A stretch of DNA of 64,000 bases from a virus (taxonomy: Duplodnaviria > Heunggongvirae > Uroviricota > Caudoviricetes), in IMG/VR virus record IMGVR_UViG_3300021255_000031; one strand, 5' to 3'. Shown here one piece after another: positions 503-40,000 of this stretch. How positions within the stretch are numbered: the stretch's first letter is position 1; every line of letters begins with the position of its first letter. Position numbers and translations under genes: made by a program. Under the pieces are notes generated by a model. The model did no database searches. It had not been told where the DNA came from and saw only the letters and a list, made by a program, of their open reading frames with translations.

Positions 503-907
503 TTACTTCAAGCGATACACATTTGCCTTGCCCTTGGCTTCGGTCTTAACAAGCCCGGTTGCCATTTCACGAAGCAAGATGTTCTGAACCTTCTGCCAAT
601 TAAAGTCGGCGGGCAGTTCGGCTTTCGCGGCGTCATACAAGTCCTTGGCGGTGATGTCGGAAGCAAGATACTTGCGGAGGACAGGAGCAACCTTGGCAAC
701 GAGGTCGGCACGTGCCGCCGCGGTGGCTGCCTTGCGCTTTTCCTTGGCTTCGGGAGAGGAAGCGCGGGTAGCGGAGAGCTGGTCGATCATACCGCCGACA
801 ACATCAAGCGCGTCCTTAATCGCGTTCTGCTGGTCATCGGTGAAGCTGGAGAGGTCACAAGCGTTGATGGTCTGGGTAACGATAGTCAGGGCGTTCTTCT
901 TAGTCAT
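503..907 (-). CDS. hypothetical early protein, family A (paralog of 5937..6269)
   Basis: 134-aa ORF with own promoter (961-989), AGAAAGG SD, terminator 474-496; shares N-terminal MTKN..L..VT and LPADF motif with 5937..6269. Confidence 0.7.
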   Translation of the reverse strand: MTKKNALTIVTQTINACDLSSFTDDQQNAIKDALDVVGGMIDQLSATRASSPEAKEKRKAATAAARADLVAKVAPVLRKYLASDITAKDLYDAAKAELPADFNWQKVQNILLREMATGLVKTEAKGKANVYRLK

Positions 908-960
908 ACTTTTCTACCTTTCTGGTTTGTAAGGGTTTTCCTTCCCTTGATTACGCTATA

Positions 961-989
961 ATTATATCACAGATTTGTGAGTTTGTCAA
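961..989 (-). promoter_or_regulatory. promoter for 503..907 (TATAAT 961-966 with TGTGA ext; TTGACA 984-989; 17-nt spacer)
   Basis: innermost of three stacked promoters. Confidence 0.7.
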
Positions 990-1007
990 GTTAAGAATTT
1001 GTTAATT

Positions 1008-1094
1008 GATGGTGGGTTATCCCTTTTCGTTCCCCTACCATCATTGCCTACGGCAATTGTGGTGCTTATTGGGAATAGGCTTCTTGCTTTCAAC
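1008..1094 (-). ncRNA. candidate about 85-nt transcript from orphan promoter
   Basis: contains perfect hairpin AUUGCC-GUA-GGCAAU (1043-1057); no ORF. Confidence 0.25.
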
Positions 1095-1100
1095 GTAATT

Positions 1101-1129
1101 ATTATATCACGGATTTGGGATTTTGTCAA
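1101..1129 (-). promoter_or_regulatory. orphan consensus promoter (TATAAT 1101-1106; TTGACA 1124-1129), no ORF before next promoter
   Basis: TTGACA-N17-TGATATAAT on minus strand. Confidence 0.6.
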
Positions 1130-1130
1130 G

Positions 1131-1297
1131 TGTTTTCTTCGTTAAGTTCTTGAGAGAGTTTTGACGCTATGCGCAACTTGCATCTTAATTCCTCGTGCGT
1201 TCCGCTCTTACGAGTGCCGAAGCAGTACCGTCTATTGCTACTTCCAACCGTAGCCCCACACGCGACCAGTGGCTCAGAGGTTTTCTCCCTCAAGAAC
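1131..1297 (-). ncRNA. candidate about 165-nt structured transcript from orphan promoter (no ORF)
   Basis: 5-prime GUUCUUGAGGGAG pairs with 3-prime CUCUCUCAAGAAC; internal UUCG tetraloop hairpin; bounded by promoters at 1304-1332 and 1101-1129. Confidence 0.3.
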
Positions 1298-1303
1298 AAT
1301 ATC

Positions 1304-1383
1304 ATTATACCATCATACCCATAATATGTCAAGTTAAGAATTTGTTAAGCTGGACTGGGAAACTTGGATGTTTAACATCCAAA
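1304..1383 (-). promoter_or_regulatory. orphan promoter (TGGTATAAT 1304-1309; TTGACA 1327-1332) + palindrome 1365-1383
   Basis: no ORF in the about 170 nt downstream. Confidence 0.6.
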
Positions 1384-1398
1384 TTCCCGTAGGGGAAG

Positions 1399-1419
1399 GC
1401 GGGACGCTGGGCGTCCCGC
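1399..1419 (-). terminator. GC hairpin GCGGGACGC-CCA-GCGUCCCGC after 1426..2967 (no clean U-run)
   Basis: perfect 9-bp stem. Confidence 0.45.
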
Positions 1420-1425
1420 TTCGGT

Positions 1426-2967
1426 TTAGGAGAACATGATATGGAAAGCTTTTGTGATATTTTCAATTAACTTTTCGGTGTATTGACTGGTTACGATAAC
1501 CTTTGCTTTAGTGAATTGATAATCATTACGCATATACTGTTTATTATCGACATCGGTAATAAGGCAAGTATGGGGCTGGTCTATCTGTTTGAATAGCTCA
1601 CTGCAAGTTTCTACACTGCCGGAATTATCACTTAAAGCGTCACCATCAAACAGGAAGATATTATAATTATAACTGTCCTTTTTTTGAAGATTGTTGAAAA
1701 TCTCGGTTAGGTTTTTTGGCAAGTCGTTTCCACCAGTACAATGCATTTGTCGCTCTTTAACACTTTGGCAAGTTACAAAATCATAATTGATAAATGAAAC
1801 ACTCAAAGAGAAATTGGGATTTTTTCTCTCGACTTCGGACAAGAAAGCCAGTAAAGCATTTACAATACCTTCATTATTCCTAAAGCTGCCCGAACGGTCA
1901 AGGAACAAATTCAAACGGCAAGTTCCATATTTTGTGTTACCATTTGTCACGGCTGAACGCTCAAAGTATTTATAATCATCACGCACCACGGCGCGGGGAT
2001 TAAATACGCCGCTATAAGCATTAAAGCCAGAGCCGTTTGAGTTCTTTTTATTGAAATTAGAAATAAGTCGTTCAATAATATTTTCCGCGCCCGCCAACTG
2101 TTGCTTAGCGTTATCGTTAAGCATTTTATCAGCAGAAAGGGCTTGCTTTGCTATTTCGCGGACAATTGCGCGACCAAGGGCTTCACAAGTTGTATTTTCT
2201 TCACCACTTTCGACTTCTTCGGCTTCGCCTTCACTGGCTTCGGCTTCTTCTGTCTTTTCGGCTTCATCATTCTTTATAACATCATCAAAGCCTGTCGTAG
2301 CGGTTTTTTTATCGGCCTTGTCGCCTTTTTCGCCTTCGCCGCTTTTACTCTGCGGTGGGGTTTCTACCTTGCAAGCGTCGGGGTCACCCGCGATTTTCTT
2401 AAATAAAGTCCTTATATCGCTGACATAATTCCAAATTTTTTCATAATCAGTTAAGGCGCTAATATTATTATATTTGTTAATTATTCTTTTTACTTCTTCA
2501 ATATATCCTGCTTTACCATAGCGAAAACGCACAATATTGAAAAAGCGTTGAATGGGGTCAGTCGCGGCGGGGTCAAGCTGGCAAATATTACGGAGCTGCT
2601 GTTTGAAGTCAGTATCAAGGTAATAATCGCTAAGAAGGGTTTCAATGCGCTCATCTTCAAAGATATTGAAAGCAGTGCGCTGTTGCTCATTGTGTGCCAT
2701 TCTAAGTAAATCATTGGGGGTCAAAATAACGTGGCTGATTTCGTGATAGAGCATAGAACGAACAGCCGTTTCCGTATAGCTTTCATCCATTACCGCTTCC
2801 AGCCCTTTGGCAATAATAGGGTAGGAAATAACAATCTTGTTTTCCATAGGCGAATAATAGCTGGTGGGCGCTTCCGTATCAAGAGAAACAGGAACTTGCT
2901 TCCCGCAGTAGTAGCCGATGGGTAGGGTTTTCAAGATTGCGTCAATGGTGTTGATACTTACGAACAT
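1426..2967 (-). CDS. VWA-domain protein with HExxH metallopeptidase-like N-terminal domain (DUF2201-like), partner of MoxR ATPase
   Basis: HEISH motif; C-terminal MIDAS-like DRSGS..GGND..FDGDA; GAAGGGAGAA SD; promoter 2998-3026. Confidence 0.7.
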   Translation of the reverse strand: MFVSINTIDAILKTLPIGYYCGKQVPVSLDTEAPTSYYSPMENKIVISYPIIAKGLEAVMDESYTETAVRSMLYHEISHVILTPNDLLRMAHNEQQRTAFNIFEDERIETLLSDYYLDTDFKQQLRNICQLDPAATDPIQRFFNIVRFRYGKAGYIEEVKRIINKYNNISALTDYEKIWNYVSDIRTLFKKIAGDPDACKVETPPQSKSGEGEKGDKADKKTATTGFDDVIKNDEAEKTEEAEASEGEAEEVESGEENTTCEALGRAIVREIAKQALSADKMLNDNAKQQLAGAENIIERLISNFNKKNSNGSGFNAYSGVFNPRAVVRDDYKYFERSAVTNGNTKYGTCRLNLFLDRSGSFRNNEGIVNALLAFLSEVERKNPNFSLSVSFINYDFVTCQSVKERQMHCTGGNDLPKNLTEIFNNLQKKDSYNYNIFLFDGDALSDNSGSVETCSELFKQIDQPHTCLITDVDNKQYMRNDYQFTKAKVIVTSQYTEKLIENITKAFHIMFS

Positions 2968-3090: not shown

Positions 3091-3118
3091 AAAAAAATGT
3101 TGCGGGTTTAACCCGCAA
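3091..3118 (-). terminator. intrinsic terminator GUUGCGGGUUAAACCCGCAAC + U7
   Basis: overlaps stop of MoxR gene; palindrome starts 12 nt later. Confidence 0.75.
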
Positions 3119-4106
3119 CAAATTCACCAGTGATTGCGCCCGCAAGCTGTTCTGCGCTAAGCACAAACTCACGAATATCTTCGCACCTATCGACAAGCGG
3201 CTCGGGCAAGCCATAAGTTACACCGCCGAGGGTCAAGTTCATAGTACCGATGATTTCAAAACCATCATTGATATGGACTTCACGGTTTTTGTAGAAGAAG
3301 GACTTTTTGCCATCTACAATGCCCTGCAAGAAACGGAGACTATCAAAGGGAAGAAGGTTGATTTCATCAAGCACAATGGGCTTTCCCTGTTCCATACATT
3401 CCCAAAGCATAGAGGGGTTGAAGTCGGGCTTGCCGTCCTTGAAAATGAAGTTTTCCATCAAGTCGGCGGGAAGCATAGAAGAATTACATACGATACAGCG
3501 GTTATCCGTTTCGGACTGCGCGAGAGTGGTCTTGCCAGTGCCAGCAGAGCCATAATAAACCTTGAAGCGGTTATTGATTACCTGCGAAGGCGCGCCGTAT
3601 TCCTTAATCTTTTTGAGAAGTTCGGAAAATTCCTTACTACGAATTTTCTGCTCTACATCATTAGCAAAGGAAGAACCCGTCAGCGCGAAGTAATGGTTGA
3701 TATAGTTCTTTGCTTCGGTTTGGCTTTTTACTGCCTTTTGCGCGAGGGTGTTAGTGAAACGGAAGGAGGGCACGAAGTCAAACTCTGTAAAGAATTTCAG
3801 CAGTTCGCCCAGCCCTTCCAGCAGCTGCGCCTTTTTATCTACAGGAAGTTCTGCGGCGGCTTCCACTACATCGGCTACAGCTTCGACCTGTTCAGCAGTC
3901 AGCCAGCTCGGAAAGGTAATACGGCCATCAGCAATAGCATCTACTCTATTAAGAGTAGGGATGCAACGGCAAGTATTATACAGATTGACAGCTTCGTTAT
4001 ACTCGGGCGCGTAGGATGGAACGACAGTAACTTTGCCCTTATACTGAATAACGATAGGAGAACCCTTGCAAGAGCGAGAAATTGACAGGTCAGAAGATAC
4101 GAACAT
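3108..4106 (-). CDS. MoxR-like AAA+ ATPase
   Basis: Walker A GSAGTGKTT, Walker B IVLDEIN; 332 aa; promoter 4156-4184; terminator 3091-3118. Confidence 0.75.
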   Translation of the reverse strand: MFVSSDLSISRSCKGSPIVIQYKGKVTVVPSYAPEYNEAVNLYNTCRCIPTLNRVDAIADGRITFPSWLTAEQVEAVADVVEAAAELPVDKKAQLLEGLGELLKFFTEFDFVPSFRFTNTLAQKAVKSQTEAKNYINHYFALTGSSFANDVEQKIRSKEFSELLKKIKEYGAPSQVINNRFKVYYGSAGTGKTTLAQSETDNRCIVCNSSMLPADLMENFIFKDGKPDFNPSMLWECMEQGKPIVLDEINLLPFDSLRFLQGIVDGKKSFFYKNREVHINDGFEIIGTMNLTLGGVTYGLPEPLVDRCEDIREFVLSAEQLAGAITGEFVAG

Positions 4107-4184: not shown

Positions 4185-4242
4185 GTTAAGATTTTGTTAT
4201 CTTGGTTTCTTTCCTTGCTTCCGTCCCTCAATCAACAATAAC

Positions 4243-4322
4243 ATTATACCATGTAGGGGCATATATGTCAAGTTAAGATTGCGTTAAGTGGCGGAGAAGG
4301 AAGTTGGATGTTTAACATCCAA
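4243..4322 (-). promoter_or_regulatory. orphan promoter (TGGTATAAT 4243-4248; TTGACA 4266-4271) + palindrome 4304-4322
   Basis: about 50-nt transcribed spacer before next promoter. Confidence 0.6.
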
Positions 4323-5160: not shown

Positions 5161-5567
5161 TCCTGTTCGTGTATCATTCTGTCAAGTCCCTTTTTGTTAA
5201 GTTCCTTGATAGTTTTCTTCGCTTCGCGCTTGGCTTCACGCGCCTTGGCTGCTGCTTCCTTTTTCGCGGCGCTGGCTTCTTTCTTTGCTTGGGTTCTTTC
5301 GCAATCAAGTTTGTAATCTTCCGCGGCGGCGTAACCGTCATAATCGTCATAGCCGCCTTTGCCGTTACGAGTGCCACGAGGAATAGTAACTTTGATTAAC
5401 ACAAATTTATCATTCCCATCGGCATCTACTACAGGGATAGCAATTTCGCTGGCGCTTACTACGCAAATTTGCTTGTCAATGTCAAGGTCGTAATGTGCGG
5501 AGAGGGCTTCTTTAACGACTTGAAGTGCTTCAACGCGGAGGGCATTTTCCAAACTGGCTTTACTCAT
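5151..5567 (-). CDS. hypothetical protein with Lys/Ala/Glu-rich C-terminal tail
   Basis: 138 aa; promoter 5598-5625; terminator 5145-5160. Confidence 0.6.
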   Translation of the reverse strand: MSKASLENALRVEALQVVKEALSAHYDLDIDKQICVVSASEIAIPVVDADGNDKFVLIKVTIPRGTRNGKGGYDDYDGYAAAEDYKLDCERTQAKKEASAAKKEAAAKAREAKREAKKTIKELNKKGLDRMIHEQEGE

Positions 5568-5936: not shown

Positions 5937-6269
5937 TTACGCCTTGGTGTACTGGTTCGGGCCCTTGGCGTTTTCAATCTTATTGACTTCGGAAGCCCAC
6001 ATTGCGCGGAGGGCGTACTGAAGCTTGGACTTGGTGAAGTCGGCGGGCAGACCCGTGCAAGCATCGAAAATCTCGGCAACGGTGCGCGGCGTGTCGTCAA
6101 TGACTGCCATTACAATGTCATGCGACTTGTCGTACAGCTCGCGGTTAGCGTTAGCCTTTTCTACATTCTTAGCCTGCTCCGCCACAAGCTCGGCGGTCGC
6201 ATCAGCCAGTTCGGGAATGTCGTGCGCGGTCAGGTAGGTTACAAGGGCGTTCAGAGTGTTCTTAGTCAT
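5937..6269 (-). CDS. hypothetical early protein, family A (paralog of 503..907)
   Basis: 110 aa; AGAAAGG leader; promoter 6320-6348; terminator 5914-5931. Confidence 0.65.
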   Translation of the reverse strand: MTKNTLNALVTYLTAHDIPELADATAELVAEQAKNVEKANANRELYDKSHDIVMAVIDDTPRTVAEIFDACTGLPADFTKSKLQYALRAMWASEVNKIENAKGPNQYTKA

Positions 6270-6319
6270 ATCAGTTGCCTTTCTGGTGTTAGGGATTTTC
6301 CTTTCCCTTTTGTGATTAT

Positions 6320-6348: not shown

Positions 6349-6431
6349 GTTAAGAGTTTGTTATGTTGAGAGAGAATCATAAGAAATGTACGGCCGATTC
6401 TCATTTCACCCTATCCCCTCTCAACAATAAT

Positions 6432-6521
6432 AGTATATCATAGATTCGGGATTTTGTCAATAGTTTAGAGTGTTAAGATTCGGTTAAGTGCGCAGAATGA
6501 AATTGGATGTTTAACATCCAA
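6432..6521 (-). promoter_or_regulatory. orphan promoter (TGATATACT 6432-6437; TTGACA 6455-6460) + palindrome 6503-6521
   Basis: transcript 6361-6430 has self-complementary ends. Confidence 0.6.
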
Positions 6522-6550
6522 ACTTTTTTACGGAGACTGTTAAGTCTCCG
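6520..6550 (-). terminator. terminator hairpin CGGAGACU-UAAC-AGUCUCCG + U-run
   Basis: after 6540..7292. Confidence 0.65.
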
Positions 6551-7292
6551 TAAAGCGGTAGTTATCTTTATATATCGTTTTCTTTACATATTCTCCCTCA
6601 TGTATTACAATTCCATTAATACTTATCTGATAGGGGTGGGCGACAGGACGCGGAAGTATCTTAACAACTTTGTAATCTTTGCCCCATTCAAGTCCCATTT
6701 TGACACATTCTTGTAATATATGCGCTTCAATGTCTGCATCAAATACACCCATGTGCTGTTCCACAAAAGCAGGAGACTTAGTTAAAAATTGATAAACAGT
6801 CTCGGCATTACCACTATAATTGCCACTTTCAGTAAAGCGCATATTTGCTTCACAGAAGTCTTGATAGTCTTTTTGGCAAGTGATAACCTCGGACGCATAG
6901 CCCCATATATCATGTATTGCTACTGTATCAAAGGGGTTTTGTGTTTTGAACCAATCGCAATTATAGGCAAAAACTTTTTCGTCAAAGTCACTATTATAAG
7001 CATAAGCGTCAGTAATTTCATACCGTTTAATATCGCGTATCATTTCTTGCATAACATAGCCCCACTTTTCAAGTATTGCTTTGCGTGAGCGCATAAGCGG
7101 GATATAAAGCGGGCGCTTATCAACATAATATGCTGTTTGAAATAGGGGTAGGTTATGCCAAACTTGCTCGATGATAAAATGCTTTCGTTCTATTACTATT
7201 CCGCTATCATTTTCAAAAATAAGATAGCCAACATCATAGCAAAAGCACTTGGAGAGGTCGGTCGTTTCAGTATCAAATACCAACGAATACAT
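6540..7292 (-). CDS. DEDD-family 3-prime-5-prime exonuclease (DnaQ-like)
   Basis: FDTETTD Exo I motif near N-terminus, later H..D motifs; co-transcribed with 7345..7593 from promoter 7625-7653. Confidence 0.65.
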   Translation of the reverse strand: MYSLVFDTETTDLSKCFCYDVGYLIFENDSGIVIERKHFIIEQVWHNLPLFQTAYYVDKRPLYIPLMRSRKAILEKWGYVMQEMIRDIKRYEITDAYAYNSDFDEKVFAYNCDWFKTQNPFDTVAIHDIWGYASEVITCQKDYQDFCEANMRFTESGNYSGNAETVYQFLTKSPAFVEQHMGVFDADIEAHILQECVKMGLEWGKDYKVVKILPRPVAHPYQISINGIVIHEGEYVKKTIYKDNYRFTET

Positions 7293-7344
7293 AATAGTCC
7301 TTTCTGGTTTTAGAAGTTGTCCTTCTTCTTTAGTATGATTTTAT

Positions 7345-7593
7345 TTATTCATCATCAATTATTATATCTTTTTGCGGCAAAAGATAAAATTTTGGCATTT
7401 CTTCCTTGCTGTTTGCGGTGGTTTGATTTTTATCATAACCACGATAAATTATATTTTTATGCGCTTCTATCCAAGCTTCTGCCTTTTCTTTAGTAGTAAA
7501 GTACTTAAACATAGATATAAATCCACTTCCATTATAATCATACCAATAGTCATATAATTCTACCTGAAGAACATATACCGTTATTTTCATCAT
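7345..7593 (-). CDS. hypothetical protein
   Basis: 82 aa; first gene of a 2-gene unit; promoter+palindrome 7625-7705. Confidence 0.55.
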   Translation of the reverse strand: MMKITVYVLQVELYDYWYDYNGSGFISMFKYFTTKEKAEAWIEAHKNIIYRGYDKNQTTANSKEEMPKFYLLPQKDIIIDDE

Positions 7594-7624
7594 TATTTTA
7601 TTCTCCTTTGCTTTTGGTAATTTT

Positions 7625-7705
7625 ATTATATCATTAGTGGGGTACTATGTCAAGTTAAGATTGTATAAAGTACAGAAGAATGTGATTTGGATGTTTAACA
7701 TCCAA
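7625..7705 (-). promoter_or_regulatory. promoter (TGATATAAT 7625-7630; TTGACA 7648-7653) + palindrome 7687-7705
   Basis: drives 7345..7593 and 6540..7292. Confidence 0.7.
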
Positions 7706-7721
7706 AATATATATGGACGCT

Positions 7722-8450
7722 TTAAGCGTCCACCAGTTTGAAATCATAGCCGCCGAGAGCAAAGAAGGAGTTCCAACCTGCGTCTGTAGAACACAAATTA
7801 CACAAATCAAAATAGGTTTTTTCATCTACATAGAACCATTCTTTTGCTCTTTGTGCCCTTGAACAAGCGAGGGAAGCAAGGATATTATGCGCGATTGTTT
7901 CACATTCTGCTACACTATAAGTGCCAGTGTTATCGCCCGGACAGACACATTTAGAACAGAATAGCATAGGATTGTAAGAAGCATATTGATTTACTCGCCG
8001 CTCACAATCTTCGGAAGCGCCAATCTTTACGAGATAGTAGGTTTGTTTCGTAAGGGGGTTAATACCTACCATTCCGATAAAATATAATCCTACATTATCG
8101 GTTATTTCTTTATAACTGGAATTGTTTTCAAATGTAGCGCAAGGCATTTCAAGCACAGGTAGGGTATCAATAAGTGATGGTGTATAATAATCATCATCAC
8201 CGTGAATAATGAGGTGTTCATCTATTGTACAATGATTAGCATACCACTGCTGGCGCAGATAAGGAGTAAGGAGCGGGAATAAGGTGTGAAGGCGAAAATC
8301 TTCTAACGAAAGTGACATTAATGAAAGCTTTGGATTACCATCGCACCATTCTTCATCCGACTTTACGAGTTCTGCCATCTCTTTTTCAAGTGCTGGGCGG
8401 TTGTTATCAATGATTTTCATAATAGTTTGGCGATACTTCTTCATATTCAA
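7722..8450 (-). CDS. T5orf172/GIY-YIG-superfamily domain protein
   Basis: GLYFIGMVGINP...YLVKIGASEDCERRVNQY matches T5orf172-type pattern (Y..KIG.S.d..R..qy); AGAAAGG leader; promoter+palindrome 8493-8571. Confidence 0.55.
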   Translation of the reverse strand: MNMKKYRQTIMKIIDNNRPALEKEMAELVKSDEEWCDGNPKLSLMSLSLEDFRLHTLFPLLTPYLRQQWYANHCTIDEHLIIHGDDDYYTPSLIDTLPVLEMPCATFENNSSYKEITDNVGLYFIGMVGINPLTKQTYYLVKIGASEDCERRVNQYASYNPMLFCSKCVCPGDNTGTYSVAECETIAHNILASLACSRAQRAKEWFYVDEKTYFDLCNLCSTDAGWNSFFALGGYDFKLVDA

Positions 8451-8492
8451 AGCCTTTCTGGTTTATAGGGTTTCCTTCCCTTTGATGTTTTT

Positions 8493-8571
8493 ATTATACT
8501 ATAAAGGGGGTAAATTGTCAAGTTAAAATAGTGTAAAATGATATATAATAAATTGGATGTTTAACATCTAA
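8493..8571 (-). promoter_or_regulatory. promoter (TATAAT 8493-8498; TTGACA 8516-8521) + palindrome variant TTGGATGTTTAACATCTAA 8553-8571
   Basis: drives T5orf172 gene. Confidence 0.7.
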
Positions 8572-11931: not shown

Positions 11932-11958
11932 AATATATAAGCTGGTTTACGCCAGCTT
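11931..11958 (-). terminator. hairpin AAGCUGG-CGUAAA-CCAGCUU + AUAUAUUUU
   Basis: after 11947..12216. Confidence 0.55.
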
Positions 11959-12216
11959 GCGAATTTCTCCGGTTTTGATGTTCATTTGCGTGCGGTTAAT
12001 GTAGCACTGCTTTGCGTCATAGTAGCTTAGCCCCAGCTCACGCATGAACCAGCTGATATGTTTAATGGTCGTGCGGCTATACAGACCATAGCAGGTTAGC
12101 CAGCCTTTACTATCGATGCTAATTACTTTGGTGTGGTAGCTAATCAATTTGGTGATGCTGCTGTCGGTGATGATGCACGCCTGCGCGTATTTGTGGCCGT
12201 TCAATTTCCTTATCAT
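11947..12216 (-). CDS. hypothetical protein, family B (paralog of 13601..13918)
   Basis: start MIRKLNG after GGAGGG SD; shared LISYxT..I.ID..G.LTC.G.YS.TT.KHI...Q.NI.TGE core. Confidence 0.65.
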   Translation of the reverse strand: MIRKLNGHKYAQACIITDSSITKLISYHTKVISIDSKGWLTCYGLYSRTTIKHISWFMRELGLSYYDAKQCYINRTQMNIKTGEIRKLA

Positions 12217-16677: not shown

Positions 16678-16772
16678 GTTAATTGTTGGTTAAGTTAGAT
16701 ATTAAGTATTCAAAAAATCAACAATGAGGTTTATTCCTTATTGTGCGCTTGCGCTTGCGACTTTTACCTATT

Positions 16773-16861
16773 ATTATATACCCATTAAGTTGTAAAGTCA
16801 ATAGAATTTACAAAGATTTAACATTGCTTCTGCGTTAGAAAATTGGATGTGTAACATCCAA
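16773..16861 (-). promoter_or_regulatory. orphan promoter (TATAAT 16773-16778; TTGACT 16796-16801) + palindrome variant TTGGATGTGTAACATCCAA 16843-16861
   Basis: about 80-nt transcribed spacer with AU-rich hairpin + U-run (16726-16760) before next promoter. Confidence 0.55.
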
Positions 16862-18690: not shown

Positions 18691-18746
18691 ATAATCGGTC
18701 AGAGTATGAAAATACTCACTCCAAAATCACTATGGAGGTTTCCAAA

Positions 18747-20036
18747 ATGAAAAAACCCTATACACTTGACTACTCAATTGAACGAGATACTGACCGCCTC
18801 AAGGCAGTCGAAGATATATTAGATAAACTAGATAAAAATCCCTCCCCCGCCGAATTAGAACAAATGGGTTCTTATATACTATATGGCAAAGACGAAAATG
18901 GCAAAAACGCCTACCAACGCGGAGAAATGATAAGAGATGCCCGCTATAATTCTTATAAAACCAAAGAAGATAAAAATGTATCACTTGATGCAATTTTAGA
19001 AAATCCACTATCTGACCAGCAGCAATTTCGTGAGATGGGCACAAGAGACCCATACCTACTTCCACGTCGTGTCCCGCGCCGCCCCAAATACGATAAAAAA
19101 ACAAATACAATAATTGATGACGGGGACGGTGATATTCCAGGAATGCAAGAATTATGGGAGTGCATTGACCGTAACGAGCACTGGATAGCCGTTCTTGAAG
19201 GCAAGATACCGGCGCAGCCCGAAGACACACTATTTGATAATCCCTATCGTCTATATAAACTAAAACATTCACTAATTGATTTGCGGCGGCACCAATATTA
19301 TTTATTAGATGCCTACAAACCTTGTATCCACTTCCTCGCGGCCGACCACCCCAAACGCCAATACATAGATTGGAACAGCGACTCCTTCTACTGGATTTCG
19401 CGTGAAGAGTGGGAAAGGCGCGTTAATAGCACTTTTTTCCCTGTTTCAAAAAATATTGAAGATTATGAAGTGAGAAATGAAGGAAAAGAAGTAAAGTGGG
19501 TGGTGCGCCAGCACACCTTCAATTGGGAAGACCCAAATCATATTTATGCATTAATTTGTAACTATCAAAGTTTATATAATCTTTTATGGGACAAATTAGG
19601 CACGGACGGTCATACTTTACTTATGGATTTTCAACGCTACCGCCAATTAACAAATTTTTCTGAATTACGCAACTTTATCTTACAAATGAAATTGGAACAA
19701 TATTCACAAGCTGAGATTAAATTTGCCGTTCAAAAAAAATATGGATTAAAATTTGGCATTAGTCATTTATATACTGTTATAAGTAAAGAAATCCCAGAGG
19801 CCATCGCGCAAACGGTAATTAAAGATAGAATGTTGAGGCAGACCCCCAAAACCCAATGTCAAAAATGCCGTGATTGCGGCCGTTGGCTTCCAAAAAATAA
19901 TTACTTTTATGTCACTAATAATAATCGCGCAAGTGGATTTTCCGCTCGTTGTAAAGAATGCGAGCGACAGGCGCGTATTGCAAAAGGAGAACAAGGGCAA
20001 TATGACAGAAGAAAAAAAGAAACGCACGTGCATTAG
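18747..20036 (+). CDS. hypothetical protein with C-terminal CxxC...CxxC zinc ribbon
   Basis: start MKKPYT after GGAGG SD; consensus promoter 18662-18690 upstream. Confidence 0.6.
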   Translation: MKKPYTLDYSIERDTDRLKAVEDILDKLDKNPSPAELEQMGSYILYGKDENGKNAYQRGEMIRDARYNSYKTKEDKNVSLDAILENPLSDQQQFREMGTRDPYLLPRRVPRRPKYDKKTNTIIDDGDGDIPGMQELWECIDRNEHWIAVLEGKIPAQPEDTLFDNPYRLYKLKHSLIDLRRHQYYLLDAYKPCIHFLAADHPKRQYIDWNSDSFYWISREEWERRVNSTFFPVSKNIEDYEVRNEGKEVKWVVRQHTFNWEDPNHIYALICNYQSLYNLLWDKLGTDGHTLLMDFQRYRQLTNFSELRNFILQMKLEQYSQAEIKFAVQKKYGLKFGISHLYTVISKEIPEAIAQTVIKDRMLRQTPKTQCQKCRDCGRWLPKNNYFYVTNNNRASGFSARCKECERQARIAKGEQGQYDRRKKETHVH

Positions 20037-34047: not shown

Positions 34048-37000
34048 ATGGCTGAGGGTATAGTAATAGATGTTAGCGCGCGAGTTACTGGGTATGAGCA
34101 ATCATTGGCTCAATTAAAAGCAAGTTTTGACCATTTGAATCCAGGAGCAAGCATTTCAAAAAGTATCACTCGTGCATTGCAAATTGCAGAGAGCAAGGTA
34201 AAATCTTTAGGAAATAATTTAACTCCTAAGATTACAAGTAATTCACAATTAGATAGATTTACAGAAAAAATAAATAGCACAAGCGATGCAATTCAACACG
34301 TTGCCAGCTTGCTTGGACAAATTAGTTCTGATGATTTGGATTTGTCTTCTTTTTCTGGTGAATTCGATGAATTAACTCAAAAAATACGTGAATTAGAAGC
34401 GTTATTAAATAAAAATATTACAGAACAATTTAGAGAGAAAATTACGGCTGCAATAAGTGGAATTAAAATTGATGATAATGCCACACCTGCGGCTATCTTT
34501 CAACAATTAGAGGAAGCGTCTAAAAAGGCTGCAAAAGCAGTTGTTGCCGCTGAGCGTGAAATGGCTGAAGCAGAGAAACAATTAGCTACGCGGCAACGAA
34601 GACTTACAGAGCTTCAAAGTAATGCGGCAAATAATCCAACGGCATTAAATAATCAGGTGCATAAGATTGCCGATGATTATGTAGAAGCTATGAGTTCTTT
34701 GCGTGAGCAAATGACAAATGGATTAAATACATTATTAGGGCCGGATAGTGCGGACGCTTCAAAATTATTGGAGTCATTTTTTGGTGGTTTGAATCCAGAG
34801 GATGGCGCGGATGTAGCTAATCGTATTTATCAATTACGACAGTCTATTACTACCGCAATGGGTAAATCTGCGGTTAAACCAACTGAAATATATCAAGCAT
34901 TATTTGGTAAGAATTTAAGCCCACAGGCAATGAGTGAATATTTACGAGCTCACATATTGCCAAAGAATTTAGACGATGTAAAAGCTCAATTGATGGCAAC
35001 TTTGCAATCAATATCTACACATCTTACCTCTACTCAAATTGGGCAAGTTTCTGGGTTGATTTCTAGTAATGATATTGATGGTGCGCTGCAAACAACGTTA
35101 GACCTTATTACTAAAGCTTATGAAACAATACAGGCTAAAATACTAAAAAAGCGCCAAGAAGTTGCGGAAGCTTTAAATAAAAGAGACAACGCTCAGCAAG
35201 AAGTAAATAATGCTACCGCTCAATCACAACAAAGTGTTGATAATGAGCAAATAGCACGCGAACAATTAGCACAAGTAATGCAGCAGAATCAAGCATTACA
35301 AGAGCAGAATGATTTATTAAAGCAGGAATTAGCTAGACAAGTAGAAGATAAGACTGTAAATATAAAAAATAGAGCAGCAGATACAAAAGAAGAAGCCGAG
35401 AATCTTAAACTTGCAAGTGAGGAAGCGGGACAATATAATCAACAATTAGATAAAATAGATAATAGAAGGCAACTAGTTAATCATATTGAGGGCATCGCGC
35501 AGCGTTGGTTTTCTATTTATGCAGCGGTGCGAATGACAGGAAACGCGATTCGTTCAGTCGTTTCTACATTGGAAGAGCTGGATAAAACAATTACCAACAT
35601 CGCCATTGTTACTGATATGACACAAGATGATTTGTGGAGCCAGATGAGCACCTATACCGCGATGGCAAAGGAATATGCCGTTTCGATTTCTGGTGTATAT
35701 GAAGTTTCACAACTTTTCTATCAACAGGGCTTACAAACTCGTGATGTTATGACCTTAACTGGCGAGACATTAAAAATGGCTCGTATTGCAGGGTTGGATT
35801 ATGCAAAAGCTACCGACTTTATGACTAACGCTCTTCGTTCATTTAAAATGGAGAACGAGGAAGCTGGCCGAGTTACAGATGTTTATTCTTCTTTGGCAGC
35901 CAGCGCAGCAATTAGCGTTTCTGAGTTAGCAAATGCTATGAGTAAAACGGCTTCTTCTGCATACGCGGTAGGTTCTAGTATTGAAGCTACTTCTGCTATG
36001 ATTACAGTTATGGTAGAAGCTACACGTGAATCCGCTGAAAACATCGGTTCAGCTATGAAGTCTATCATTTCTCGTTACGGTGAAATGACTAGTGATCCAT
36101 TAAAGGTTGTTGATAGCGAAGGCGAAGAAATGAGCCTGAACCGTGTTGATAAAGCCTTGCAGACCGTTGGAATTACATTACAAGATGCTAATGGACAGTT
36201 CCGTAACTTCGATGAAGTAATTATGGAATTGGCTGAAAAATGGAATACTATTGATAAAAATACTCAGCGCTATATTGCCACCATCATGGCTGGTAACAGA
36301 CAACAGTCTCGTTTCTTAGCCCTAGTATCTTCTTATGACCGCTTAAGAGAATTAACAGCCACCGCAATGGAAAGTGAGGGTGCGGCTACTTCTCAGTTTG
36401 AAAAATCATTAGATGGTATTGAAGCTAAAACGCAACAGCTACAAACTAGTTTGCAAAATTTATATACTAGTGCTGGACTGCAAGACCTTTATAGCTTTAT
36501 TTTAACTATTGGCAGCAATGTATTAGATTTTTATAATGATATTGCGGCTGCTTTTGGAAGTGGATTTAAAGGGCTACTTGCTGCTCTGGTTACTTTTAGC
36601 GCACAATTTTATAATGCAGCTAGAATTGTAATGCGTGTAGTAGATTTAGTTAAGACCCACTTTATTGGTGCTAATAAACAAGCTACAGCTAGTTCTGCAG
36701 TGGAAAGTAAAAATCGTGCAAATACGGAGTTATATACTGCTGAAGAATTGAATGCAAAAATAATTGAAGTATGGCGTAAGGCGGAAGAAGAGAAAACAAA
36801 AATTACAACTGAAGAAGCTGAGCGCCGTGCGAAAATTTTATTGAATGCAGAGAAAAACAATTCGCAACAAAAAGGCAGTGGGTTGAAAAACTGGTTGAAA
36901 AAGAACGGAAGTATGATTGGTTCTACCATTGCCGCAGGCTCTAGCATCGTCGGGGGAATGCTAACCGACTCAAAATGGAGTGCTGGTGTGAGTGGAGCAG

Positions 37001-40000
37001 GAGGTCTAATTGGTGCAGTAATCCAAGGTGCATCTGGAGACATTGCAGGGGCCATAATGACTGCTATCAGTAGTATTGGGCCATTAGTAAGCTTAATAAC
37101 CCAATGGGCTACTATAACCGATGAATTAGCGGAAGCTCAAGAAAAATATAACAAATCATTAGAGGAAGCAGCTAAAAAACGGACAGAAGCAACAAAAATT
37201 AATAATGAAGCAGAAGCTTTAAAGAAATTAAGTGAAAGACTCGAAGAAGCTAAAGAAAGACAATATGATAGCGCTGAAGCAAAACAAGAATATTTGTCAG
37301 TAATGAAAGAAATAGCAGAGCAATATCCGTCTTTAGTAGCTTATTATGATAGTGAAAACAATGCAATTGTAGAAAATACGAAAGCATTAGATACTTATAT
37401 CAAAAAACGCAAGCAAGAAGCAGCGATAGCAGAAAGAGAAGCTATTATTGCTGAGGCCGGTGCAGATAGTAGATATGGTGTAACTATTACACCAGCGAAA
37501 CAGGTATACGAAGGAAAGACCAGCGGTCGTGATGTTAGCAGACTTCATAATCAAGAGAATGATATAATCCAGGGGAAATTTTCTACCGTTGGCGCTGCAA
37601 TGAATGCTGCTATTTCAGAATATTTGTATTATAATACAGGTTTTCTTGCTGATGTTGAAACATCTAATCTTTTAGGATTTGATTATAATAATGATACAAA
37701 TAAAACGCTGTTTAAAGAAAAAGCAAAAAATGCTACAAAGGAAAAAACTGACCTTAATATCAATAAAGCAGTTCAAGTTGCATTAGATGTTTTAGTAAGT
37801 AGATTAGAAGCTGCTCAGAAAGCAGGAACCTCTTTAGAGGAAGTCTATACCAAATGGGAAAAAGAGTGGTTAGCAACGATAGATGGGTATAATAGAGAAA
37901 ACAGTTTATTCTATGAGATTTTTCAATATGCCCAGCAATATATTACTCATGCAGATACTTTTAAAGCCTCTCGTGAAGATTTAGTTCATCGAGCCGCCGT
38001 TTCTTTTGTAAAATCATTAGACTTAGAAGGCTATACTGATTTACAAATACAGCATTTAGTAGGACAATTTGAAAGTAGTTTTAAAGAAACTAATCCAGAT
38101 GTGCTAAATATTTCAACTTCTCAAGAAGATTTTCAAAAACGGTTAAATACTTTTTGGGGACAACAAATTGAGTCTAGTGGAAATTACACTCTCAATGCCC
38201 TTGAATATTATGGGACAATTGATAAAAAGACAATCGCACAAATAGACAAAGTATTTAACAATCTTGCAAAATATAGTAGAAATAGTCTTGAAGCTTTGAT
38301 AGATTCTATTGGAATTACAGGGCCGGCTGCCAAAGATTTATTAAAAGAATGGGATACAGAAAATGGTCTTGCTGTAGAGAATGCTAAAAAGGCTTATAGT
38401 AATCTTCTTGGAAGTAATCAAGAATTGAGTCAAGAGCAAGCAGATTTTATAGACTCATTGGCACCTACCTATTTATCAACCTATATAGAACAATTGCGAG
38501 CCTTTTCAAGTAATGGTAGTGGTGGAACTCCTACCTCTCTTAACATATCACCTATTCAAAAGATATGGGAAAAAGCTCAAGGGAATGATGAAGCACTTCA
38601 AGTCTTACAAAAAAGCGATTTAACTACTATTACTGGTATTTATGATGCGGCGAAGGAAATGGAAAAGTTAGGCAATTCTGACTTAGCCACATCTATAACG
38701 AAACTTTCAGAATATATACAAATAAATCTTAATACAGAACTTCAAACATATGTTGATACATTACAGGGGAGTTTCTCTGATTTAGAAGCAGCATTAAAGA
38801 ATGCTTCTTCTGGTATGGATGTTGATACTATGCTTGCTATGGCGGATAGGCTTGGAAAGAGTATTAGCGATTTTTCATTTAAAGACGGAAAATATTATTT
38901 TAATGATATTAATGCTATTTATGATTCATACTCTAAAGCTTCAGACGCTCTAGAAAAACAATTAAGTGAAATACAGTTGGTTGAAGATACTGATAACTAT
39001 GAAGAATTATCAGCAGAAGCCAATGAATTAAAAAATAGAATAAAAGAATTAAGAACCTATACAGATGATTATCTTAAAAAAACCTTCTTGCTTCAAACAG
39101 GACAAATAGATAAATTTTTAGAAGAGCTCAATGTTGGAGCAGAGGTTAAGCAAGAAATAGCTCATGGCGATTATACTCATATTCCTCCTGAGTATATTTC
39201 TGCTGTGACATCCGCCGCTGGAAAAACATATAATGAAATTTATGATATTTTAATTGGTCAAATTAATGGCTCTTCTAAACAAACTACAATAAAAGCAACA
39301 GAAGTAAATTTAGATTTATTAAAGAGTTTAGGTCTAGCTGGTAATGGAGTAGTCGCAGGAGACGAACTACTTATTAATTGGGCTAATGCTACAGCAGACC
39401 AAATTAATTCTTTACGCCAAATCATTTTAGAAGATGGTGATATAGGAGACGATGAACGCAATAACTTATTGCGTTCAATTTATGACAGTAAATTTAAAAA
39501 TAATCGTACAGAAGCTTTATTGCAAGTTATTAATTCTTATACTAACTTTGACCGAAGCGTTGCGGAAGCTTTTGCACTTTCTATCGGTGAGACAGTTGAG
39601 GGGCTTGAAAAGAAAGGTATTATAGCTCTTAACCAAATTACTGGTGCCTATTCTATGACATTCGATGTCTTACAACAACAAATTGAAGAGGCTAAGGCCA
39701 ATGGAGCAAGTGATACAGAATTAGCTAAATTAAAAGATGCTATTTCTACTTTATATAGCGGCATAGCTAATAATATTGTAAAAGCACTAGAGGGCTCCTT
39801 AAGTTCTACAGACGCTCAAGAGTTATCTAAATCAATCGAAGATATTTTTGGTCTAAAACTTGATTTTTCTAGCACAGCTAAAGGTCTTGGTCTTTCTAAT
39901 GAAATTGCTGCAATATTGTATCAACGCTTAATGGCAATTGATGGGATTGCCGCACGCCTAGTTTTTGATGCTTTATACGATTCTTTGACGAAATCAGAAG

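Follow-up and report, generated by a model that had tools for sequence, protein, structure and literature searches.

What does a promoter of perfect consensus drive when no open reading frame (ORF) follows it? The question is raised by a virus of the class Caudoviricetes (IMG/VR record IMGVR_UViG_3300021255_000031), from which one stretch of 64,000 nucleotides (nt) was analysed, here called the window. All coordinates are those of the window, and L-numbers (L001 and so on) denote retrieved related loci or contigs. A model that read the letters alone had pointed to four loci where such orphan promoters precede segments without an ORF, and had offered two explanations, decayed but still transcribed copies of a gene family or regulatory small RNAs; we refer to this as the original prediction. 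We show that the first orphan unit, read from 1332 to 1146 on the minus strand, encodes no protein but a member of a conserved family of structured RNAs, which we call RNA-A. The analysis as a whole makes it likely that RNA-A is a stable, early, trans-acting and probably dimeric RNA, and that the other orphan promoters belong to extra or lineage-specific units.

A conserved structured RNA behind an orphan promoter

The unit and its parts, in the direction of transcription, are the following.

1364..1382, minus strand: cassette-boundary hairpin TTGGATGTTAAACATCCAA; its next downstream copy is at 443-461
1304..1332, minus strand: RNA-A promoter, TTGACA-17-(TG)TATAAT, matching the consensus at 12 of 12 positions
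1146..1297, minus strand: RNA-A, a 152-nt structured non-coding RNA, supported by a covariance model, covariation and a non-coding core
1285..1297, minus strand: 5' arm of P1, GUUCUUGAGGGAG (the shared motif of the original prediction), in a closing stem of 13 base pairs (bp)
1280-1277, minus strand: 5' strand of P1b, CCUC, which pairs with GAGG at 1194-1191
1276-1269, minus strand: invariant junction UGAGCCAC, following the 5' strand of P1b
1237..1259, minus strand: invariant GUGGG and then the P3 hairpin, GCUAC-GGUUGGAA-GUAGC, supported by covariation and RNAalifold
1205..1224, minus strand: tetraloop mini-hairpins P4 (UGC-UUCG-GCA) and P5 (CUC-GUAA-GAG), the variable domain of subtype I
1195..1202, minus strand: conserved junction GAACGCAC, in which a few copies differ at the first G and at the C that precedes GCAC
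1163..1184, minus strand: P6 hairpin, GAUGC-AAGUUGCGCAUA-GCGUC, with a covarying stem
1175-1170, minus strand: self-complementary hexamer UGCGCA in the P6 loop, at a fixed position across variants
1146..1158, minus strand: 3' arm of P1, CUCUCUCAAGAAC, which pairs with the 5' arm

A scan of IMG/VR with the core 16-mer GGTTGGAAGTAGCAAT matched 26 loci, 17 of them true homologues, and gapped patterns, a degenerate metagenome scan and a genome scan supplied further copies. The family now holds at least 38 sequence-distinct copies (about 40) from human-gut and rumen metagenomes, carried by phage contigs of up to 198 kilobases (kb) and by two contigs of metagenome-assembled genomes labelled Bacilli and Acutalibacteraceae. 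Neither the exact 27-mer of the 5' end nor a pattern of the P1 arms plus the gap between them matched anything in IMG/VR; the sequence of P1 is lineage-specific. Clear homologues of 1297-1146 are present in L002, L003 and L004, as blocks of identity between replaced segments, and there they stand in front of the gene for a 110-amino-acid (aa) protein. All copies have in common CUGAGCCAC, GUGGGG, a 5-bp hairpin with the loop GGUUGGAA, CAAUA and GAACGCACG, with rare single substitutions. A 27-nt invariant core is kept across phages whose neighbouring proteins are only 55-65% identical.

The covariance model of the family, R1, finds 46 full-length copies at 100-175 bits. Its single copy in the window (1143-1303, minus strand; model positions 1-172) scores 128.4 bits (E ~ 3e-33), a value that is partly circular because the window sequence is a row of the seed alignment; the core motifs are all present by direct reading. 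The features by which R1 defines membership were each found, namely the stems P1, P1b, P2, P3 and P6 and the strings UGAGCCAC, GUGGGG, GGUUGGAA, CAAUA and GAACGCAC. The minimum free energy fold of 1297-1146 has -51.5 kcal/mol (z = -2.2).

Comparison of the copies shows a common fold. The two ends of the RNA are brought together by P1, of 9-13 bp; inside it, P1b closes a junction in which the strands UGAGCCAC and GAACGCAC are nearly invariant. Within P2, which covaries, stand GUGGG, the P3 hairpin with its invariant loop GGUUGGAA, and AAUA. After P2 comes a variable domain of three subtypes, which in the window consists of the two tetraloop mini-hairpins, and then the 3' hairpin P6. The CCAC of the junction and the invariant GUGG probably form an H-type pseudoknot together with P2.

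The stems are kept while their sequences change. P3 occurs in eight versions (GCUAC/GUAGC, GCGGC/GUCGC, GCAUC/GAUGC, GCGAC/GUCGC, GCAAC/GUUGC, GUGAC/GUCAC, GUAUC/GAUAC and GCUAU/AUAGC) and P1b as CCUC/GAGG, CUCC/GGAG, CUUC/GAAG and CCAC/GUGG; P1 is wholly different between lineages, with GUUCUUGAGGGAG, GUCAAGGGG, GUUGAAAGGG and GUUCAAGAG as examples. When aligned by sequence alone (MAFFT), the copies have 82% of cells paired and score 0.369 for covariation; shuffles give 0.19 and slid partners 0.10-0.15. The model-based alignment has 87% of cells paired and double changes in 27 of 33 pairs, and its observed covariation score was reached by none of 500 shuffles. P1 is 91% paired, with compensatory changes in all nine modelled pairs, and P3 is 100% paired in 37 sequences, with four of its five pairs covarying. 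RNAalifold independently returned P1, P3 and the invariant CCAC/GUGG pairing. Within subtype I (alignment A7, seven sequences), pairing reaches 96.9% of cells, with compensatory changes at 13 of 23 pairs; for P4 and P5 the values are 100% and five of six, while their tetraloops swap among GUAA, UUCG, GCAA and GUAU. Covariance folding over homologous phages was the check that the original prediction had named, and for 1297-1146 it gave conserved stems with compensatory changes. The closing stem that had been drawn at this locus is thus real, but its 3' arm lies at 1146-1158, 7 nt away from the 1139-1151 first assigned.

G-U pairs are frequent in the stems, which fixes the transcribed strand of RNA-A. 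They also bear on whether the conserved element is the DNA itself, with inverted repeats and palindromes that bind proteins or serve recombination, for instance in the shuffling of cassettes or the regulation of promoters. In many lineages the 3' arm of P1 does overlap the -35 box of the promoter that follows (CCCCTTGACA), at the DNA level the P6 apex is palindromic, and the slot is a hot spot of cassette exchange, as described below. On the other strand, however, the many G-U and U-G pairs would become A-C mismatches, the tetraloops swap while the stems covary, one version of the palindrome functions only with G-U pairs, and some copies stand between tRNAs where there are no promoters. We regard a DNA-level element as highly improbable. 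In L008, L013, L016, L048 and others, the 5' end of the non-coding RNA, GUCAAGGGG, is the reverse complement of the next -35 region, CCCCTTGACA, so that the closing stem contains promoter sequence.

No reading frame is conserved among 38 RNA-A homologues, and the core lengths fall into all three residues modulo 3. One 13-codon ORF at 1194-1141, preceded by a GAGG resembling a Shine–Dalgarno (SD) sequence, was rejected, since this GAGG is the conserved P1b strand and the frame is not conserved.

A self-complementary loop in P6

At the P6 apex, 27 of the 34 distinct variants carry, always at the same offset, a self-complementary hexamer that contains G or C, where shuffles lead one to expect 10. 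The hexamer comes in nine versions, UGCGCA (the window), UGGCCA, UGUACA, UCUAGA, UCCGGA, UCGCGA, UCAUGA, CCAUGG and CGCGCG, which fit U(C/G)NN(G/C)A or patterns close to it; in one more version, UCUAGG, self-complementarity requires G-U pairs. In most variants the axis of the palindrome lies 1-2 nt off the axis of the stem, so the hexamer is not an extension of the stem. Bases 2 and 5, and 3 and 4, cannot pair within one loop. A loop whose self-complementarity is kept by covariation, at a fixed position and in nine versions, suggests that the hexamers of two molecules pair with each other, as in a kissing-loop homodimer.

Promoters, tRNA neighbours and maturation

A sigma-70-type promoter matching at least 10 of 12 positions and ending 6-9 nt before P1 is present in 37 of 42 distinct copies, and two copies have only weaker promoters of 8-9 of 12. 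Other copies are embedded among tRNA genes. For example, in L071 the CCA end of a tRNA-Trp is followed directly by the 5' arm of P1, and the next tRNA begins 6 nt past the 3' arm; processing of these tRNAs would therefore release exactly the P1-closed module, which is likely to be the functional unit. A tRNA-Lys(UUU) begins 6 nt after P1 in L034 and L051, and in L053 RNA-A lies inside a 13-kb array of 19 tRNAs, a transfer-messenger RNA (tmRNA) and a cow-rumen-3 RNA. Two tRNAs of L071 have a CUA anticodon, which suggests that this phage may read TAG as sense.

In the window, no terminator was found between RNA-A and the next two promoters and the gene that follows them, which encodes a 134-aa protein; the sole boundary hairpin lies past that gene. 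After the boundary hairpin at 1364-1382 the next one downstream is at 443-461, and RNA-A, a second orphan insert (insert B) and the 134-aa gene therefore share one cassette. Of the features of a small regulatory RNA, RNA-A thus has the promoter, while an intrinsic terminator was not found, and for the promoter-driven copies we infer that the 3' end is made by processing of read-through RNA. Between RNA-A and the next ORF there are one or two complete promoters. Such intervening promoters, and the tRNAs that flank some copies, do not fit a riboswitch or a cis-regulatory leader.

Early-gene cassettes and the other orphan units

The locus belongs to a region built of small cassettes. The window is contained in a contig of 167,282 bp in the European Nucleotide Archive (ENA), and an IMG/VR contig of 167 kb (L001) is about 95% identical to the window phage. 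Beyond the early genes the window holds a phage sigma factor, a portal protein, an HNH endonuclease, a 4142-aa protein and NrdD, and from this gene content the window is the early region of a large phage of an anaerobe. The best explanation takes it to be an uncultivated phage of about 167 kb whose host belongs to the Bacillota. No similar record was found for the early region among GenBank phage records (INPHARED).

In the first 17 kb every gene is on the minus strand, and almost every small early ORF is a separate cassette with its own consensus promoter. A promoter scan of 1-17 kb found 25 perfect 12/12 TTGACA-17-TATAAT sites, on the minus strand only. The order within a cassette is promoter, short leader ATCAAAtGAAAGGAG-N-ATG, ORF and the 19-nt hairpin TTGGATGTTAAACATCCAA, which has 27 near-identical copies between 443 and 16861 where none is expected and trails nearly all early cassettes (1364-1382, 4304-4322 and 6503-6521, for example). 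The stem of this hairpin has only three G-C pairs and its U-tail is variable; its role may be in termination, in processing or in binding a protein. Directly abutting the TTGACA box of most early promoters is an element cTTAAC-N6-CTTAAC (990-1004 and 1333-1347 are examples), which could be an UP-like or regulator-binding element common to them.

Orphan promoters without an ORF are real in this setting. With the start of the -35 box at 1332, 1129 and 4271 they match TTGACA-17-TATAAT at 12 of 12 positions, and those at 6460 and 16801 match at 11 of 12; all are on the minus strand. The gap to the next promoter of 11-12 of 12 is 174 nt (1332), 111 nt (1129), 58 nt (4271), 83 nt (6460) and 95 nt (16801), and in none of the five units does an ORF with SD sequence and ATG occur before that promoter, which in each case drives a real gene. 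None of the five ends in the boundary hairpin TTGGATGTTAAACATCCAA; each is part of the downstream gene's cassette and is flanked by that gene's boundary hairpin on one side and by that gene's promoter on the other. The locus at 1008-1297, originally taken as one promoter-driven non-coding unit, proves to be promoter-driven and non-coding but to consist of two, 1297-1146 and 1095-1005, the latter with its own promoter at 1129-1101. The units other than RNA-A are these.

1101..1129, minus strand: second orphan promoter, matching at 12 of 12 positions
1005..1095, minus strand: insert B, 91 nt, non-coding, with two local hairpins (marginal fold, z = -1.9)
4185..4271, minus strand: promoter 4271-4243 and a 58-nt unstructured A/G-rich spacer, in tandem with the promoter of the AAA_5 ATPase gene at 4184-4156
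6349..6460, minus strand: promoter 6460-6432 and an insert with a 14-bp hairpin (6426-6413/6377-6364), before the promoter of the 110-aa paralogue
16678..16801, minus strand: promoter 16801-16773 (11 of 12, no TG) and a 95-nt unstructured spacer, in tandem before the promoter at 16677-16649

These units are not one class. The pairs 4271/4184 and 16801/16677 are 87-124 nt apart on the same strand, each pair serves one gene, and no ORF, terminator or structure lies between their members, which are conserved in relatives; these are tandem promoters, and 4242-4185 and 16772-16678 are the unstructured stretches that space them. The former pair and its spacer are conserved in L001-L007, and the spacer has z = +0.5; for 16772-16678 there is no significant fold (z = -1.0). 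In contrast, 6426-6364 is a lineage-specific hairpin module of 63 nt, and 1095-1005 is a lineage-specific non-coding unit of 91 nt with no homologue by BLAST in L001-L075. BLAST against L001-L075 and alignment to L076 found homologues of 6431-6349 and 16772-16678 as same-lineage copies only. The insert 6431-6349 is identical in L001 alone, and in other relatives its slot is filled by different inserts. Apart from RNA-A, the orphan inserts gave no match to R1 in the window at E<=1, and the L001 copy of 6431-6349 reached 15.9 bits (E ~ 0.1) through its closing stem only. Of the closed stems originally proposed for these loci, those of 1297-1146 (13 bp) and 6426-6364 (14 bp, z = -3.35) hold, the second with its arms at 6413-6426 and 6364-6377 rather than where they had been placed, while 4242-4185 and 16772-16678 have no fold. 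The term regulatory small RNAs was accordingly right in kind for 1297-1146, a conserved covarying RNA, but the four loci cannot be covered by it together.

The start motif shared by these segments had been read as a possible trace of common origin. It does open three of the inserts (attGTTCTTGAGGGAG, attGTTGATTGAGGGAC and attGTTGAGAGGGGAT; pattern attGTT(C/G)..GAG(G/A)G), but 16772-16678 starts without it. As had been noticed, it also opens the leader of gene 11947..12216 (promoter 12294), as GTTCTTGAGGGAAC at 12259-12246, and the leader of the gene behind promoter 13996 begins with it too. A GTT-type start is found in four of five orphan units and in two of 27 coding units. The motif is neither a relic of a coding leader nor evidence of descent from a common gene; it forms the arm nearest the transcription start in a stem at the 5' end. 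In the RNAs this stem is P1, while each of the two mRNA leaders has a small hairpin there, and it plausibly protects the 5' end.

The explanation that the inserts are leftovers of genes of the 11947..12216 family, transcribed without function, draws on that motif of 12-14 nt shared with two real leaders, on the gain and loss of cassettes between close relatives (as in L001, where a cassette with a 38-aa ORF occupies 1005-1323) and on the spacers at 4242-4185 and in L091, which resemble degenerate copies of the ACAAACCAGAAAGG leader. For 1297-1146 it is refuted by covariation; the 27-nt invariant core and the lack of a conserved frame speak against it as well. Searches of all five inserts against the window with blastn-short and tblastx returned self matches and the 12-nt start motif only, so the proposed decayed copies of the family could not be recovered; for 1297-1146, tblastx finds no similarity to any window gene. 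As a general account we give this explanation next to no chance. In a weaker form, decay suits the short unstructured spacers: 4242-4185 and those of L091 look like duplicated modules of promoter plus leader that would have lost SD sequence and start codon.

Comparison with relatives shows how these slots change. L001 keeps the inserts 4242-4185 and 6431-6349 unchanged, while 319 nt (1005-1323) containing both units of the first locus are swapped for a promoter and a 38-codon ORF for a membrane peptide, and 2 kb of cassettes with four genes (6523-8548 of the window) are missing. L002-L007, with an ATPase of 80-90% identity, retain the tandem promoter with its spacer before the ATPase gene and have differing non-coding inserts before the 110-aa gene. 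The replacements and indels of L001 show that the early slots exchange cassettes.

Further promoter-driven, P1-closed non-coding inserts of 100-235 nt were seen beside RNA-A or upstream of a winged-helix paralogue (L022 8976-9206 and homologues; L002 7752-7916 and 7968-8066; L005 4183-4292; L013, L016, L058 and L046). Each is confined by its sequence to one lineage, and they are possible additional RNA families. In the cassette after RNA-A, L011 (about 5190-5360) and L056 have a promoter-driven insert of 130-170 nt that starts GGGGAGCG and ends GGAGUUCAAUUCUCCCGCUCUCCACCA; its tRNA-like acceptor and T-arm with CCA recall the tRNA-like domain of tmRNA, and ARAGORN made no call.

Three observations concern the coding genes. 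The phage sigma factor is encoded at 18732-20036, where the minus-strand early genes give way to plus-strand genes, and the 4142-aa ORF (34048-46476) lies amid structural genes. The AAA_5 (MoxR/CobS-like) ATPase gene (3108-4106, minus strand) is followed by that of a 513-aa protein with faint metallopeptidase-like matches (1426-2967, minus strand), a pair kept in more than 1000 metagenomic relatives.

The winged-helix gene and the cis-leader explanation

503..989, minus strand: promoter 989-961, leader (hairpin and ACAAACCAGAAAGG) and the 134-aa winged-helix gene 907..503, syntenic with RNA-A

The first ORF downstream of RNA-A belongs, in 26 of 31 loci, to one BLAST-linked family of proteins of 105-136 aa, which includes both paralogues of the window, 907..503 (134 aa) and 6269..5937 (110 aa); orphan-promoter units precede both. 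The 134-aa protein matches nothing in Pfam or PHROGs. In the AlphaFold model (mean predicted local distance difference test score, pLDDT, 88) the protein consists of helices and ends in a winged helix at the C terminus; structure matches are generic (Fur, ArsR, Z-alpha and ROQ, E>=0.03) and do not discriminate between DNA and RNA binding.

This synteny invites the explanation that RNA-A and the other inserts are a multi-promoter 5' untranslated region of the winged-helix gene, acting in cis and yielding no independent product. No terminator or boundary hairpin separates any orphan promoter from the downstream gene, the five inserts lie in that gene's cassette, and homologous genes elsewhere are preceded by one to three extra promoter cassettes; for 4271/4184 and 16801/16677 a leader is indeed the best reading. 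For RNA-A, however, a full promoter always stands between the RNA and the gene, and P1 insulates the RNA as a closed module. Genes other than the winged-helix one follow it in L060 and L062, tRNAs surround or directly follow it in L071, L053, L034 and L051, and it is absent from three of the four fetched loci with a homologue of the gene. We think a cis-acting leader unlikely.

Those homologues (L089-L093) have stacked promoter cassettes upstream with other inserts, either A-rich spacers of 45-60 nt like degenerate ACAAACCAGAAAGG leaders or lineage-specific closed hairpin modules. The slot upstream of winged-helix genes generally receives promoter cassettes and genes for non-coding RNAs; among its inserts, RNA-A is the one that is broadly conserved. 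The leader of the winged-helix gene is of a long type, with a hairpin bearing a AAGGAAAA-like loop and then ACAAACCAGAAAGG and the start codon. This type is found at 908-955 and 6270-6319, behind promoters 8521, 10728, 4753 and 4184, in L042, L057, L067, L075 and L052, and before winged-helix genes of distant phages. Its stem covaries between phages, and it is a candidate translational control element.

Proposed course of events and points that weigh against it

Under the reading that we prefer, a trans-acting and probably dimeric RNA, host RNA polymerase would transcribe RNA-A at once on infection, starting at or next to the first base of P1. The mature RNA would be the P1-closed module, its 3' end cut from a read-through transcript, and the paired 5' end would shield it from decay that depends on a free 5' end. 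The CCAC of the junction would pair with the invariant GUGG in an H-type pseudoknot with P2, and two molecules would dimerise by kissing of the P6-loop hexamer (UGCGCA in the window). RNA-A would then act in trans by means of the invariant nucleotides of its junction and loop, and its target would be a conserved partner from the host or the phage, possibly one connected with tRNA or translation, or the adjacent small winged-helix protein.

Several observations weigh against this reading. The invariance of the core is partly a product of retrieval, as the patterns by which all homologues were fetched hold the core constant. Pairing in P2 reaches only 70-72%, in a register that varies among subtypes, and the CCAC/GUGG pairing lies beyond covariation testing because it is invariant. 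The hexamer is absent from seven of the 34 P6 variants, in A/U-rich versions of P6 the palindrome at times shares its axis with the stem (L024, L059, L061), and template-switch mutation can produce perfect palindromes. Without a terminator, RNA-A could be the 5' part of a long mRNA. Lastly, three of the four fetched winged-helix homologues (L089/L090, L091/L092 and L093) lack RNA-A and the fourth is the window's own contig, so the linkage of RNA and protein is not obligatory.

RNA-A might also represent a new class of catalytic or ligand-sensing RNAs, such as self-processing ones, which would be compatible with action in trans. Invariant junctions, a probable pseudoknot and variable peripheral stems around a fixed core of about 150 nt are what such an RNA might look like; yet the ribozymes and riboswitches of Rfam give no match, not even at E<=10, an expression platform is missing, and no cleavage site can be inferred. 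The chance of this is, in our view, very small. A bolder version of the trans-acting RNA is that RNA-A founds a new class of pseudoknotted, homodimerising phage RNAs of the first minutes of infection, forming an RNA-only or RNA-plus-winged-helix device, a quarter of the size of the phage RNAs ROOL and GOLLD, that targets a conserved host component such as the tRNA and translation machinery or an RNA-targeting defence. We put this forward tentatively, as a whole, and with more doubt than belief. If it is true, the stacked cassettes upstream of winged-helix genes would make up a fast-evolving island devoted to non-coding RNA genes, each with a promoter of its own.

Phage structured RNAs without a known function (GOLLD, ROOL and motifs of tRNA islands) are an open problem. 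RNA-A offers a compact example of about 150 nt that is easily synthesised. Its core is highly conserved, it has a probable pseudoknot and a putative signal for dimerisation, its promoter is defined, and one protein recurs as its neighbour; it is widespread in human-gut and rumen phages of Bacillota. More generally, promoters without genes in phage early regions can flag non-coding RNA genes, and the slots behind them swap cassettes between close relatives.

Searches of catalogues

The RNA-A family is in none of the catalogues searched. Rfam 15 (4227 models, including riboswitches, ribozymes, 6S, signal recognition particle (SRP), Y RNA, pRNA, ROOL, GOLLD and the cow-rumen motifs) has no match in the whole window at gathering thresholds and none at E<=10 on window 950-1400 or on the L071 copy; the L048 copy gave only noise, at best 20 bits to a microRNA model. 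ARAGORN found no gene in the window, and in L034, L053 and L071 it called the flanking tRNAs and not RNA-A. Two RNA-A copies had no match among GenBank phage records (INPHARED), and a full-text literature search for core sequence strings returned no relevant match. Two large automated surveys of microbiomes and IMG/VR list structured RNA candidates by the thousand, without naming them (PMC8040213, PMC10690425). The searchable part of the supplements of PMC8040213 (200 of 408 files) contains no match to the RNA-A core, and a fragment of the motif may be listed in one of the surveys as an anonymous candidate. The P3 loop GGUUGGAA resembles the consensus of the tRNA D-loop, which might be a lead towards mimicry, and CUGAGC might pair with tRNA D-arms, an idea at this stage.

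Comparison with known systems

Among known phage RNAs, ROOL and GOLLD invite comparison. They are RNAs of phages and prophages, often beside tRNA islands, known from rumen, gut and lake metagenomes; they are 500-800 nt or longer and form homo-oligomeric cages of 8 to 14 subunits, and recent cryo-electron microscopy has shown some such phage RNAs to be self-assembling RNA machines (PMC12286853). Like RNA-A, whose pseudoknot is a probable one, they have covariation-supported folds with pseudoknots and no known protein partner or function. RNA-A differs from them in its length of about 150 nt, in sharing no sequence or model similarity with them, and in carrying a dimer-type signature only, from which its oligomerisation is predicted.

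The phage tRNA cluster of T4 contains the small stable RNAs C and D, of unknown function, and in L053 RNA-A itself shares a 13-kb tRNA array with cow-rumen-3 (RF03083). RNA-A has another sequence and fold than these RNAs and is not detected by their models. Tandem early promoters are likewise familiar, from T7 A1-A3 and rRNA P1/P2. The loci 4271/4184 and 16801/16677 resemble them in having two consensus promoters for one gene, but here the upstream promoter comes with a duplicated degenerate leader, and other slots hold structured RNAs.

A strong early promoter at the end of the phi29 genome drives the pRNA, whose 5' and 3' ends are paired and which forms multimers by loop-loop pairing; this RNA belongs to phi29-like podoviruses of about 20 kb, docks on the connector and joins hand in hand through loops that are not self-complementary. 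RNA-A likewise is non-coding, has an early promoter and paired ends and, by prediction, pairs loop to loop. Unlike pRNA, it belongs to a phage of about 167 kb with a conventional portal, its loop is self-complementary, and there is no model match between the two.

For the loop itself, the closest parallel is the dimerisation initiation site (DIS) of HIV-1, a hairpin loop AAGCGCGCA with 6 self-complementary nt flanked by unpaired purines. The dimerisation of a retroviral genome is a context unrelated to RNA-A, and the analogy is one of mechanism only: like the DIS, the P6 loop AAGUUGCGCAUA presents a self-complementary hexamer with flanking unpaired purines, and its variants keep that complementarity.

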